64,000 nucleotides of DNA from an uncultured Rhodospirillaceae bacterium. Lineage in GTDB: Bacteria; Pseudomonadota; Alphaproteobacteria; Micavibrionales; UBA2020. The notes under the pieces were generated by a model, which saw nothing but the letters and a program-made list of their open reading frames with translations, searched no databases and was not told the DNA's origin. The position numbers and the translations under genes were made by a program. Below are positions 24,597-30,235 of the stretch, piece after piece. How positions within the stretch are numbered: the first letter of the stretch is position 1; each line of letters starts with the position of its first letter. The stretch lies in the NCBI GenBank assembly GCA_964458415.1, contig CAYWIT010000011.1, positions 11,739 to 75,738 of the forward strand, read 5' to 3'.

Positions 24597-25433
24597 TTAC
24601 CTTAACAGATCGGCGACATTGAAGGTCTTTTCATCAAAGCGCTTGCCCTTGTCCGCTTCCATGCCTTCATAGACGACACGGATTTTTCCACCGGACAGGC
24701 TCTGCTCGGAAATGTTCACGTCAGCTTCACGACGCGAAACTTCAGGATAAATGTTCAATCCATTGAGTTCGCCGATTTTCCTTTCCTCTCCCCCCGGCGG
24801 AGTCCAGAAAATATCCGACCGGCCCAGTGTGCTATGTTTGCCGGTACGTTCGATATAAAGACGGATACGCGGTCCCCGCTTGCCCTCGGCGGGAATAAAT
24901 TTCGGATCGACGATTTTCGCCTGCGCGTCATAAGCCCCCTGACGCAGCATCACCGGTACGGAAAAACCGACATTCACGCCCACGCCGACCGCAGCCCCCT
25001 TTTTCGACGCGGAAATATTGGGACTCGCTATACGATTCATCTTGATATGCATGCGATATTCCCCATCCGGCAGATCTGCCGGCCGGCGCAGGGAAAGCCG
25101 GACAGATTGCTTGCCACGCGGCGGCAGCTCCACCTGACGCGGACTGTAAACGATCATCTTGGTCAAGTCATAACCCGGCGTTGTCGGACCTTCCAAAGCC
25201 TCGTAAGCCCCCGTCGGCAGCTGTTTCAGGTGATAGAGCTCCATCCGGAAGATCGCCGCTTTTGTCGAGGTGTTGACCAAGGTCAGGCCCTTCATCCGGT
25301 CATGGCCCTGAAAAACCGTGCGGATCGGCATGATCATCAGATCAGCCAAGGCCGCCGGAACAGAGAAAAAAACCACTGCCGACAGCGCCATTGCCGCCAC
25401 GCCAGTTACGATTTTTCCTTTTTTATTCAGCAT
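24597..25433 (-). CDS. PapD-like periplasmic pilus chaperone
   Basis: 278 aa with a signal/anchor sequence. LMIMPIRTVFQGHDRMKGLTLVNTSTKAAIFRMEL resembles the chaperone N-terminal domain. It lies downstream of two DUF4402 genes. Confidence 0.6.
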   Translation of the reverse strand: MLNKKGKIVTGVAAMALSAVVFFSVPAALADLMIMPIRTVFQGHDRMKGLTLVNTSTKAAIFRMELYHLKQLPTGAYEALEGPTTPGYDLTKMIVYSPRQVELPPRGKQSVRLSLRRPADLPDGEYRMHIKMNRIASPNISASKKGAAVGVGVNVGFSVPVMLRQGAYDAQAKIVDPKFIPAEGKRGPRIRLYIERTGKHSTLGRSDIFWTPPGGEERKIGELNGLNIYPEVSRREADVNISEQSLSGGKIRVVYEGMEADKGKRFDEKTFNVADLLR

Positions 25434-25446
25434 TTTATTTCTCCAT

Positions 25447-26983: not shown

Positions 26984-29900
26984 ATGGGGAAAAAGCGTTT
27001 TACAAAAAAAATTCGCCGCGGGATTCTGGTGTTGTCATTTCTGACAACGCTGCAAGTTCCTGCTGCCCCCGCCTGCGCCGAACCGCCCGCCGCCACGCTC
27101 TCCCGTGAACAATTGATGAATCTGGCCCGCCAGTTTGTCGACAAGATCGGTCAGGGATTGAAAACCGCCGATGAGCAGATGGCGGAAAAAATCGATCCGG
27201 AAGACCTGCGCATGCAGAAATATTTCGAAGGCCTGCCCGAAGGCGAGCCCCTGATCCTGCAAATCAGCCTGTCCGGCACACGTTTTCACGACAAACGGAG
27301 GATCAACATTGACCAGCCGGTCATGGCGATCAAGGAAGGCCATGACGTCATGATCTCCCTCCTCGACTTTGTCGGCGCCGCCAGCTTTCCCATCAAGGTT
27401 GACGCGGAAAGCGGTACTGCCGATGGCTGGTTTATCCGTGAAACCCAGCCGTTCAATCTGGACATGGCGACCCGTAAAGTCACCGTGCTGAACAAAACTT
27501 TTGATATCGCGCCGGAGGACGCCCGCATTGACGGCCCCGACATTCTGGTCCGCGGCAAGACCCTGTCCCGCTGGTTCGGGTTCCAGATGCTCGCCAACCC
27601 GCAAGCACAAAAGCTGGAGGTTGTGACAGAACAGCCCTGGCCTCTGCAGGAAAAATACGAGCGCGTCCGGCGCTATGCCAGCATCGTTCAGAAACAACCC
27701 CCGAAAAACCCGCGGCAGGATGAAGATTACAAACTGGTGGATATCCCCAAGGCGGATATCTCGCTGCGCCAGCTCTACGACAAACACGCTGACGGGCGGG
27801 TCATGAAAAGAACGGCATGGACGCTCAACAGCACGGGCGATCTTGCTGCCCATCAGGCCCGCGCCACGATTTCCGGCAGCGATCAGGAACCGGTTAATAC
27901 CATCAATTTCACCCTCTCGCGATCATCCGAGGAACCCGCGCTGCTGGGCCCGCTCAAGGCCCGTTTTTACGAACTGAATGACATCCGCTCGGTGAAAGTC
28001 CCCCTTACGGGTAACGCGCCGCTGGAGCGCGGCCTGCGTGTCACCAACAGAAACCCCGATGTAACCTATGATACTGCGACGGTGATCGAAGGCTATACCG
28101 ATCCGGAATGGGATGTCGAGCTTTACCGCAACACGCAATATATCACCGCCATGACTGTCGGCATCGATGGCCGCTATGGCTTTGAGGATGTCCAGCTCTT
28201 CGCCGGGGAAAACAGGTTCCGCATCGTGCATTACGGCCCCCACGGGGAACTGCGGGAAGAAGAACGCGTCATCACTGTGGCGCCGGGCGCCTATGGCACC
28301 GCCGGCCTCTATAACGTCTCGCTCTCGCAACAAAAAATACAGACCTATACATCAACCAAGTCCGGCGGGCGTGATGAAGGCACACCGCACCTCGCCGCCA
28401 CCTATGAAAAGCAGATCGGCGACACGCTTGTCGTGCATGGCGGCCTCAACGCGCGGCAACAACAGGGAACGCAGGCCCTCTATCTCAACGGCGGCGCCTT
28501 TACACAGATTGGAAAGGCGCTCGTCAATACCGATATCGCCGTCACGCCGGAGAAAACCTATACCGGATATCTGGTCGCCAGACAAAACTTTGGCCGACAT
28601 TCAGGCTCCGCTTCACTCAACATCCGGGGCGAGGACTATGTCACCGATACCGCCATTGATTCCCGCGCGCCCGCGAACTATGCCACAAACGTCACACTGA
28701 GCGGCCCCCTGACGGATATGCTCCGCGGCGGGCCCACCTATACCGCCTTTGCCGGACTGTCCCTGACCAGTACCGATACCACAACGTTCAGCACCGGTCT
28801 GAAACTCTCCGGAAAAATAAACAGAGACCTCTATGCCAGCAATTCCCTTTCCTACAGCCAGGTCACCAATGCCGCCGGAGAAAGTCTGGACAAGCTTGGC
28901 GGCGCGCTCTCCCTGCGCGGAAGGGCGCTCAATACGACATGGCGATCTTCTCTGGATTACAGGATCATGCCGGAATCGGAACTGAAAAGCCTCCGCGTCA
29001 ATTTTTCGCGCAAGCTCACAAAAAAGATGGGAGCCGATGTCAGTTTCCTGCGCAAAATGGATACCGGCTATACGCAGGAAGGGCTGTCTCTGGACTGGAA
29101 TCTGGATCGTGCCACCCTCTCCTCCTCCGTCTCCTATGACAGCGAACAGGCCATATCCGCCATGATGAACGTCAGGTTCGGCCTGGCCTATAACCCATAC
29201 AGTAATGACTTCATCATGAAAAACAGCAGCCTGTCCTCCACTGGCGGGGTTGCGGCCTTCGTCTTTCTGGACAAGGACGGGGATGGCGCCTTCTCTGCCG
29301 GAGACGAGCCGCTGCCGGATGTTCTTGTCAGGGCCGCACAGGTTTCACGCACCGCCGACACCGACGAAAAGGGCGAGGCTTTTATCTATGACCTGCCGAC
29401 AAACAAGGTCACGGACATCATCGTCGAGGAAAGCAGCGCCTTTGACCCAACCTGGGTCTCCGGCTTCCCCGGCATCTCCCTGCGTCCGCGTGCCGGTTCG
29501 ATTACCCGCATTGACTTCCCCATCCTGCAAGGGGCCGAGATGGACGGAACGGCCTGGATGGAGGATGCAAGCGGCAACAAGACGGCAGCCCGCAACATCC
29601 GGCTGGTGCTGAATACGCCGGATGGACAAGTTGTAAAAGAAGCCTTGACCCCCTATGACGGGTTTTTCGTCATCAGCGGCATCCGCCCCGGCGTCTATTA
29701 CCTGACGGCGGATACGACGCTTTCTCCGGTTACGGGTTATCTGCCACCGAAAAAAGTTATTATCGGTCCGGAAGGCGCCCTGCTTTACGGACAAAACATC
29801 ATCCTGACCAAGGGGTATGACATCCCCGTCACTTTCCGCAGCGACACACCCTCTCCCGCCAGCGATATACGCGCCTCGCATATCCTGCAGCCCGCCGATA

Positions 29901-30235
29901 TCGCTGCCGAGGATGTGACCTTCCGCGTCGGCCAGTATCACTCGCGTCTGGGCATGGCCTTTGACTGGTACAAGCTCAAGGTCCGGCACAGGGATCTGGG
30001 GAAATACTTTACACTGGCCGCCGACTTTGACGCCATCGAACCGGATGCCGCCAATGCACGGCTCAGCCTGCCGTTGCGTTCCAGAAATCCGCTCCGCCCC
30101 GAAGAGGCGGCCGCTATCTGTCAGCAATTCATCGACCGCGATTTCACATGCGCAGTCGAGGTCACCACCCGTTTCAAGGACGCCGTACCAACCGCAGAAG
30201 CTGCTGGGAAATCAGAGAAAAATGGCAAAACCTGA
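26984..30235 (+). CDS. usher-like outer-membrane protein with C-terminal SPOR-like domain
   Basis: 1083 aa with signal peptide ...APACAEP and a long beta-strand-rich middle. An Ig-like/Cna-B-like segment (AAFVFLDKDGDGAFSAGDEPLPDVLV) is followed by FRVGQYHSRLGMAFDWYKLK...EEAAAICQQFIDRDFTCAVEV. The usher call rests on context and composition. Confidence 0.5.
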   Translation: MGKKRFTKKIRRGILVLSFLTTLQVPAAPACAEPPAATLSREQLMNLARQFVDKIGQGLKTADEQMAEKIDPEDLRMQKYFEGLPEGEPLILQISLSGTRFHDKRRINIDQPVMAIKEGHDVMISLLDFVGAASFPIKVDAESGTADGWFIRETQPFNLDMATRKVTVLNKTFDIAPEDARIDGPDILVRGKTLSRWFGFQMLANPQAQKLEVVTEQPWPLQEKYERVRRYASIVQKQPPKNPRQDEDYKLVDIPKADISLRQLYDKHADGRVMKRTAWTLNSTGDLAAHQARATISGSDQEPVNTINFTLSRSSEEPALLGPLKARFYELNDIRSVKVPLTGNAPLERGLRVTNRNPDVTYDTATVIEGYTDPEWDVELYRNTQYITAMTVGIDGRYGFEDVQLFAGENRFRIVHYGPHGELREEERVITVAPGAYGTAGLYNVSLSQQKIQTYTSTKSGGRDEGTPHLAATYEKQIGDTLVVHGGLNARQQQGTQALYLNGGAFTQIGKALVNTDIAVTPEKTYTGYLVARQNFGRHSGSASLNIRGEDYVTDTAIDSRAPANYATNVTLSGPLTDMLRGGPTYTAFAGLSLTSTDTTTFSTGLKLSGKINRDLYASNSLSYSQVTNAAGESLDKLGGALSLRGRALNTTWRSSLDYRIMPESELKSLRVNFSRKLTKKMGADVSFLRKMDTGYTQEGLSLDWNLDRATLSSSVSYDSEQAISAMMNVRFGLAYNPYSNDFIMKNSSLSSTGGVAAFVFLDKDGDGAFSAGDEPLPDVLVRAAQVSRTADTDEKGEAFIYDLPTNKVTDIIVEESSAFDPTWVSGFPGISLRPRAGSITRIDFPILQGAEMDGTAWMEDASGNKTAARNIRLVLNTPDGQVVKEALTPYDGFFVISGIRPGVYYLTADTTLSPVTGYLPPKKVIIGPEGALLYGQNIILTKGYDIPVTFRSDTPSPASDIRASHILQPADIAAEDVTFRVGQYHSRLGMAFDWYKLKVRHRDLGKYFTLAADFDAIEPDAANARLSLPLRSRNPLRPEEAAAICQQFIDRDFTCAVEVTTRFKDAVPTAEAAGKSEKNGKT

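Follow-up and report, generated by a model that had tools for sequence, protein, structure and literature searches.

A probable, very divergent chaperone-usher system with DUF4402 proteins as putative substrates in an uncultured alphaproteobacterium

The 64,000-nucleotide stretch of contig CAYWIT010000011.1 analyzed in this study (the window), from an uncultured Rhodospirillaceae bacterium, carries at positions 24597-30235 a four-gene locus with the features of a chaperone-usher system built on proteins of the DUF4402 family. Three of the genes form a minus-strand operon comprising a long DUF4402 subunit of 213 amino acids (aa) (26040-26681, assigned by comparison with DUF4402 proteins using the profile-profile program hhalign), a short DUF4402 subunit of 165 aa (25447-25944, assigned by Pfam and an AlphaFold2 model) and a putative PapD-like periplasmic chaperone of 278 aa (24597-25433, assigned by profile-profile comparison). 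The fourth gene (26984-30235, plus strand) encodes a usher-like outer-membrane protein of 1083 aa and is separated from the operon by a divergent control region of 302 bp (26682-26983). A box of the type bound by the regulator CtrA, TTAAGGTCCGGTTAA, lies within this region at 26814-26828, 133 bp upstream of the ATG of the 213-aa gene, and a terminator-like GC-rich hairpin with a T-run lies on the minus strand between the two subunit genes (25985-26010). Sec-type signal peptides were read by eye on all four proteins, and the two small proteins share the C-terminal motif Y-x-G-(S/T)-F-D-(V/L), as YSGTFDL and YTGSFDV. The open reading frames, their coordinates and lengths, the shared motif and the divergent arrangement all agree with the first-pass annotation of this DNA.

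The Pfam models Usher (PF00577), PapC_N, PapC_C, TcfC and CooC_C gave no match to the 1083-aa protein at E<=1. A word-index homology search returned 89 relatives of this protein, among whose precomputed Pfam domains none of these models was present and none of which carries an Usher annotation; the names attached to them were limited to "carboxypeptidase regulatory-like," "SPOR domain-containing" and one partial "hotdog fold thioesterase." When the chaperone, the usher or the C-terminal part of the usher was searched directly by sequence against the PDB, no useful match was returned. A confident AlphaFold2 model (predicted local distance difference test score, pLDDT, 87.7; predicted template-modelling score, pTM, 0.71), computed from an alignment of 67 sequences, gave a DSSP string of six long strands, a six-strand beta-sandwich plug (residues 365-432), 18 further strands up to residue 737 and two beta-sandwich domains, which reads as a 24-strand barrel with the plug inserted between strands 6 and 7, the hallmark architecture of PapC and FimD. 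In the predicted layout, the signal peptide is followed by a helical segment (residues ~41-82), an N-terminal domain (~89-215), the barrel (~256-746) including the plug (~354-437), two immunoglobulin (Ig)-like C-terminal domains (~754-930) and an extra beta-alpha-beta-beta-alpha-beta module (~973-1064).

When this model was compared with the PDB using Foldseek, the best 18 matches were all FimD or PapC structures (E 1e-28 to 4e-13, with up to 933 aligned columns), followed by Ig-repeat proteins at 1e-9 and by TonB-type and other barrels at 1e-6 or worse. Additionally, an hhalign comparison of the usher family with a classical reference profile, made from six annotated Escherichia coli K-12 ushers, returned a probability of 97.1% (E 7.6e-11, 504 columns, ~13% identity) and mapped the FimD plug onto residues 354-437 of the window protein, the barrel end onto residue 745 and the end of the first C-terminal domain onto residue 850. 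These boundaries are co-linear with those taken from the model, plug to plug and barrel end to barrel end, so that the sequence and structure evidence agree. Because the AlphaFold2 model, the Foldseek ranking and the hhalign mapping concur, the 1083-aa protein is considered a true but very remote usher homolog, and the usher-like identity proposed for it earlier is upheld.

The window chaperone had no Pfam match of its own. Its family was found to include 127 relatives, mostly from uncultured Alphaproteobacteria and with few automatically annotated as PapD-like, and 33 of the 62 aligned homologs matched PapD_N (best E 3.7e-6). Compared with the PDB, the family profile placed FimC, CupB2 and two CsuC sequences in its top four positions at E values of only 0.2-0.8. 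Against a profile of eight classical chaperones, hhalign returned 84% (E 7.6e-6) over the N-domain, a comparison in which the window's own alternate-class chaperone, included as a control, scored 92%; against that alternate-class PapD_N chaperone itself, the family scored 88.7% over 200 columns spanning both domains. The residue R38 aligns with Arg8 of PapD and FimC, and the segment LPDGEYR aligns with LPQDRES of the verified PapD sequence. A candidate G1 strand is predicted at approximately VGVNVGFSVPVML. The 278-aa protein is thus a probable, not proven, remote PapD-like chaperone, an identity that had been proposed for it and that is upheld here at the level of remote homology.

Of the four proteins, only the 165-aa subunit was recognized by standard Pfam and NCBIfam searches, with a DUF4402 (PF14352) match of 39.2 bits (cutoff 25.2; E 1.3e-9). 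The 213-aa protein gave no direct Pfam match, to DUF4402 or otherwise, and was connected to the family only by profile-profile comparison with DUF4402 proteins (98.6%, E 7e-16); its positional ortholog in one related locus (L001) has a precomputed DUF4402 match. The two DUF4402 paralogs described in the first-pass annotation can thus both be retained, the shorter one by Pfam and the longer one, by its profile, as a divergent member of the family. Searched exhaustively with phmmer, the 165-aa protein matched 252 cluster representatives. Only four close relatives were found for the 213-aa protein, as expected of a fast-evolving major subunit.

The AlphaFold2 model of the 165-aa protein, built on a 101-sequence alignment, is a beta-sandwich predicted with confidence (pLDDT 91.4, pTM 0.81). 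Its 20 best Foldseek matches in the PDB were all chaperone-usher pilins and came from the classical, alternate and archaic classes, including the PapG pilin domain, HdaB, PapA, CsuA/B, PapE, FimG, CS17, FimA, AAF, FimF and the CFA/I subunit. Because Ig-like folds abound in the PDB, a top 20 composed of pilins alone is meaningful. At the sequence level, the DUF4402 profile found nothing significant in the PDB, and no SCPU Pfam match to the subunits was found. Comparison of DUF4402 with a 15-member profile of classical pilins gave 18.8% and 0.7%, and a control comparison with CsuA/B gave 0.3%; the control indicates that the method cannot link pilin classes to one another, so that this negative result is uninformative. 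A profile comparison with an unverified Caf1 sequence was not significant.

The DUF4402 proteins fall into two classes according to the distance between the signal-peptide core and a conserved L-x-F-G motif, this distance being bimodal across ~37 "short" and ~110 "long" proteins. The long proteins, the 213-aa subunit among them, have 14-25 additional residues in which hydrophobic and polar residues alternate strictly over ~13 positions, approximately PVTIDVTATV in the 213-aa protein, and this extension is a candidate donor strand. The mature 165-aa protein begins ~10 residues before L-x-F-G and its orthologs likewise lack the extension. Under the chaperone-usher mechanism, a subunit unable to donate a strand has to be assembled first and so ends up at the distal end; for this reason and by analogy, the 165-aa protein is probably the tip subunit, and the 213-aa protein is proposed to be the major polymerizing subunit of the shaft.

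Variants of the DUF4402 subunits were observed in other clades. In Sphingomonadales loci (L036-L072), the first gene of the operon encodes a distinct subtype in which a conserved C-x-L-C motif lies close to the start of the mature protein and L-x-F-G is replaced by D-(L/F)-(G/S)-R; this subtype may serve there as tip or initiator. Some loci, namely those of Holophagaceae (L048, L056 and L061), and representatives such as P0240, P0263 and P0264 encode DUF4402 proteins of ~310-345 aa with two domains in tandem, which might act as tip adhesins of the two-domain kind or as subunits that complement themselves.

To examine the association of these genes, the chaperone profile was run against a single genome of each species, which identified a relative in ~150 species; 80 loci, located through the chaperone alone, were examined, and their DUF4402, chaperone and usher genes were called with locally built hidden Markov models. 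At least one DUF4402 gene, the chaperone and the usher occurred together in 74 of the 80 loci, so that the co-occurrence anticipated in the first-pass annotation was found for all three component types. Of the six exceptions, four (L022, L029, L030, L049) are truncated by the end of their contig or lie on a short one, and two (L023, L079) have no detectable usher or DUF4402 gene despite complete flanks. Fifty loci, from Sphingomonadales, Acidobacteriota and Myxococcota, are co-linear in the canonical order of subunits, chaperone and usher, and 24 loci, from a Micavibrio-like alphaproteobacterial clade, are divergent as in the window. A single DUF4402 gene is present in 18 of the 74 loci. Independent look-ups agree with the survey; the Sphingomonas lutea locus, for instance, contains a 275-aa gene and an 896-aa gene beside three DUF4402 genes.

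The divergent control region of the Micavibrio-like clade is marked by a conserved motif. Exact TTAA-N7-TTAA boxes occur six times in the window (0.82 expected), all in intergenic positions, starting at 2181, 18496, 24576, 26814, 39149 and 43401. Of 26 orthologous divergent control regions, 22 contain an exact box (against a mean of 1.2 and a maximum of 5 after shuffling), in most cases 80-140 bp ahead of the first subunit gene, and the case for the CtrA-type box noted earlier in the shared region of ~300 bp is strengthened by this conservation. In the co-linear loci of other clades the box is absent (1 of 52). CtrA control of the divergent promoters is therefore well supported at the motif level, and the conserved box suggests cell-cycle-linked expression in the Micavibrio-like clade. 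Three of the remaining boxes stand beside other genes of the window. The box at 43401-43415 lies ~48 bp upstream of an operon encoding a divK-like single-domain response regulator (126 aa, 42973-43353, minus strand) followed by a PleD-like REC-REC-GGDEF protein (41449-42903), a pair that looks like a conserved alphaproteobacterial cell-cycle module; the divK-pleD operon of Caulobacter is a classic CtrA target. Another box lies just ahead of the gene (18503-19213) for an Fe/Mn superoxide dismutase, and a further one lies in the divergent region between a gene encoding a 965-aa VWA-domain protein and a 315-aa gene without a Pfam match.

The hairpin after the first subunit gene was also found to be conserved, being present in 20 of 25 loci of the Micavibrio clade and in 31 of 74 loci overall (shuffle mean 5.5, maximum 13). 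The hairpin at 25985-26010 is proposed to act as an attenuator that would set the ratio of major to minor subunit; hairpins are also found 3' of major pilin genes in classical operons. The position of the hairpin after the gene of the long subunit is consistent with shaft and tip roles for the 213-aa and 165-aa proteins, respectively.

Directly downstream of the chaperone gene, and outside the coordinates first given for the locus, lies a gene for an AMIN-like lipoprotein (23338-24489, minus strand, 383 aa, lipobox LLTGC). Homologs of this gene were found in 26 related loci of the clade, nearly always adjoining the chaperone or the short subunit, and the gene is a conserved, clade-specific accessory neighbor. 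Its AMIN assignment comes from two homologs with a Pfam match above the cutoff, the window protein itself scoring 18.1 bits against a cutoff of 20.5. A second CtrA-type box, TTAAAATAACGTTAA, at 24576-24590 lies 87 bp upstream of this gene and is kept only in the two closest relatives that have the AMIN-like gene (L007 and L009).

The module at the C-terminal end of the usher is likewise a clade-specific addition of the Micavibrio-like clade. True SPOR domains end four usher relatives (P0159, P0164, P0166, P0181) at the same C-terminal position, aligning to residues ~976-1057 of the window usher. The window module fits SPOR (PF05036) in this position and in its beta-alpha-beta-beta-alpha-beta secondary structure, but hhalign gave it only 39% (P 3e-4) and an iterated SPOR profile did not recruit it. 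Among the relatives, the 1346-aa homolog P0159 ends in three tandem SPOR-type repeats (residues 1088-1339), a single terminal SPOR-type repeat is present in P0164, P0166, P0170, P0181 and L005, and in L006 a separate SPOR gene follows directly after the usher gene. Peptidoglycan-binding tails are not known to us on the ushers of any described system. AMIN and SPOR are peptidoglycan- and septum-associated modules, and this shared association motivates the speculative pole-targeting reading given below.

Compared with the classical Fim and Pap systems (FimD/PapC and FimC/PapD), the locus shares the fold and domain order of the usher, the profile homology of the usher and the chaperone N-domain reported above, an arginine at the position of PapD Arg8, the order of subunits, chaperone and usher in the co-linear relatives, and the hairpin after the major subunit gene. 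It differs in the ~13% identity of its usher to FimD over the aligned region, in the lack of Pfam Usher, PapC_N, PapC_C, PapD_C and Fimbrial matches in the window proteins, whose subunits belong to DUF4402 instead, and in an usher that is ~200 aa longer, with the N-terminal helical segment and the extra C-terminal module; additionally, no two-domain lectin adhesin is present in the window and the usher is divergently transcribed in the Micavibrio-like clade. Likeness to the archaic (sigma) Csu system of Acinetobacter baumannii lies in the small single-domain subunits with a C-terminal strand of the form G-x-Y-x-x-x-h-x-V-x-V-x-(Y/F), in the placement of CsuA/B (6FQA, 7ZL4) among the top six structural neighbors of the 165-aa model, in CsuC being among the top PDB profile matches of the chaperone, and in the wide distribution of both systems outside Enterobacteria. 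A remote relationship of DUF4402 to the SCPU/Csu pilins was considered and rejected as a demonstrable homology, since hhalign against the PDB-verified CsuA/B gave 1-2% over the last strand only; the resemblance is a motif-level analogy.

The alternate class (alpha, class 5; CS1/CFA-I/Tcf) shares the component logic of the locus, and it is to the alternate-type chaperone of the window that the new chaperone aligns best; CS17 and CFA/I subunits also appear among the structural neighbors of the 165-aa model. Unlike the ushers of this class, the 1083-aa protein has no TcfC or CooC_C domain, and the comparison of its family with the window's own TcfC-type usher was not significant (0.7%). That usher belongs to the other pilus locus of the window (2875-7274, minus strand), which encodes an 824-aa usher with TcfC and CooC_C domains, a PapD_N chaperone and two putative subunits (162 and 207 aa) without a Pfam match. 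This second system had been labeled Csu-type in the first-pass annotation, a label that does not hold because TcfC and CooC_C are alternate (CS1/CFA-I-like) domains. The Tad/Cpa polar pili of Caulobacter are CtrA-controlled and offer a regulatory analogy only: a TTAA-N7-TTAA box likewise stands upstream of the gene of a major subunit in an alphaproteobacterium, whereas the machinery there is of the type IVc Tad kind and here of the chaperone-usher kind. Judged by its sequences, the DUF4402 system fails the curated definitions of every described chaperone-usher class, and it probably forms a new, deeply branching clade within that superfamily. The literature searched, a corpus without many subscription journals, contained no publication under DUF4402, PF14352 or IPR025514, nothing relevant on chaperone-usher systems in Sphingomonas or Micavibrio or on ushers with SPOR, and no paper describing a DUF4402 chaperone-usher system, a result that is not proof of novelty.

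Other features of the window touch the locus less directly. A plus-strand gene (20199-23330) encodes a 1043-aa protein with a Transgly glycosyltransferase Pfam domain only, a long uncharacterized C-terminal part and a Pro/Ala/Lys-rich tail, and it is not conserved beside the pilus locus in relatives. The GC skew is negative in every 2-kb bin of the window (1-64000; cumulative -4.2), and Rfam and tRNA scans of the whole 64 kb detected nothing.

Combined, the gene content, the homology and fold of the usher, the remote homology of the chaperone, the subunit families, the synteny and the motif conservation are the grounds on which the locus is judged, with considerable confidence, to be a complete but very divergent chaperone-usher system with DUF4402 proteins as its substrates; the usher model, the profile homology and the co-occurrence thus lend support to the chaperone-usher-like locus first proposed. 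Several observations weigh against this judgment. No usher, chaperone or fimbrial-subunit model of Pfam or NCBIfam matches any of the four proteins, the structural matches of the 165-aa model are individually weak (best E 0.013; template-modelling scores of 0.3-0.5), and profile comparison of DUF4402 to classical pilins, CsuA/B and Caf1 aligns no more than the C-terminal strand. The second chaperone domain is covered by one 200-column alignment only, and the Sphingomonadales loci lack an extension-less subunit, so that the tip model is not universal. A chance juxtaposition of unrelated beta-rich secreted proteins and a generic outer-membrane barrel, for which the failure of curated chaperone-usher models to recognize any of the four proteins would speak, is effectively refuted: the same gene set recurs in 74 of 80 loci, which span several phyla and two gene orders, and the homology of the usher reaches 97%.

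Two further explanations accept the relatedness of the components and differ in what the system would make. The DUF4402 proteins might be displayed as monomeric or short oligomeric surface adhesins, or as an amorphous capsule-like layer such as that formed by the F1 antigen, in a chaperone-usher-like pathway without an ordered pilus. Such an outcome would suit a window with two small single-domain subunits only, in which no two-domain lectin-type adhesin was found, and the 18 of 74 loci with a single DUF4402 gene, and the present results do not separate a rod from thin flexible polymers; it is nonetheless considered unlikely, since the amphipathic N-terminal extension of ~110 long subunits is best explained by strand donation and polymerization and the hairpin behind the gene of the long subunit implies that this subunit is made in excess, as is typical of a polymer shaft. 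Still less probable is a non-secretory role, in which the usher-like barrel and its Ig-fold partners would form an envelope-structural or peptidoglycan-tethering complex at the septum. The bona fide SPOR ends of several family members, the AMIN-like lipoprotein as a conserved neighbor and the cell-cycle timing suggested by the CtrA box would all fit a complex of this kind, but the combination of plug, barrel and C-terminal domains is specific to translocating ushers, most loci (Sphingomonadales, Acidobacteriota) keep subunits, chaperone and usher without AMIN or SPOR, and the nearest structural neighbors of the subunits are secreted pilins.

For the chaperone-usher system favored here, a mechanism can be drawn by analogy with characterized systems. 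Both DUF4402 subunits would be exported by Sec and captured in the periplasm by the 278-aa chaperone, which would complete their incomplete beta-sandwich and hand them to the 1083-aa usher, envisaged as a gated 24-strand barrel with plug, N-terminal docking domain and two Ig-like C-terminal domains. The 165-aa subunit, with an acceptor fold and no extension, could occupy the distal tip only, and the 213-aa subunit would polymerize behind it into a shaft through donor-strand exchange of its amphipathic N-terminal extension, with the hairpin after the 213-aa gene ensuring that shaft subunits outnumber the tip subunit and the chaperone. We infer donor-strand exchange, the formation of a fibre at this locus, the tip and shaft roles and the binding of CtrA from the features described above.

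A more far-reaching and speculative scenario, to which a low probability is assigned, concerns the Micavibrio-like clade. The usher module and the AMIN lipoprotein might park the machine at the septum, the future new pole, where a CtrA-timed (predivisional), cell-wall-tethered polar chaperone-usher fibre, built of DUF4402 subunits and capped by the 165-aa protein, would serve for attachment, possibly to the prey of epibiotic predators; with its counterparts in Sphingomonadales, Acidobacteriota and Myxococcota, it would constitute a seventh major clade missed by sequence-based censuses. If true, a peptidoglycan-anchored usher and developmental control would be found in a chaperone-usher system for the first time.

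Among bacterial adhesive fibres, chaperone-usher pili are the best understood, and their classification relies largely on sequence models of the usher. An usher family that escapes these models and occurs in the genomes of at least 150 species from several phyla implies that chaperone-usher censuses are incomplete. The DUF4402 family gains a testable function as a pilin or fibre subunit, and cultured carriers of the system include Sphingomonas lutea, Chakrabartia godavariana (strain PRB40) and Porphyrobacter spp., among them Porphyrobacter sp. AAP60. Finally, the CtrA box, the AMIN-like lipoprotein and the SPOR-type usher tails hint at a spatial and temporal control that would be new to the chaperone-usher pathway.

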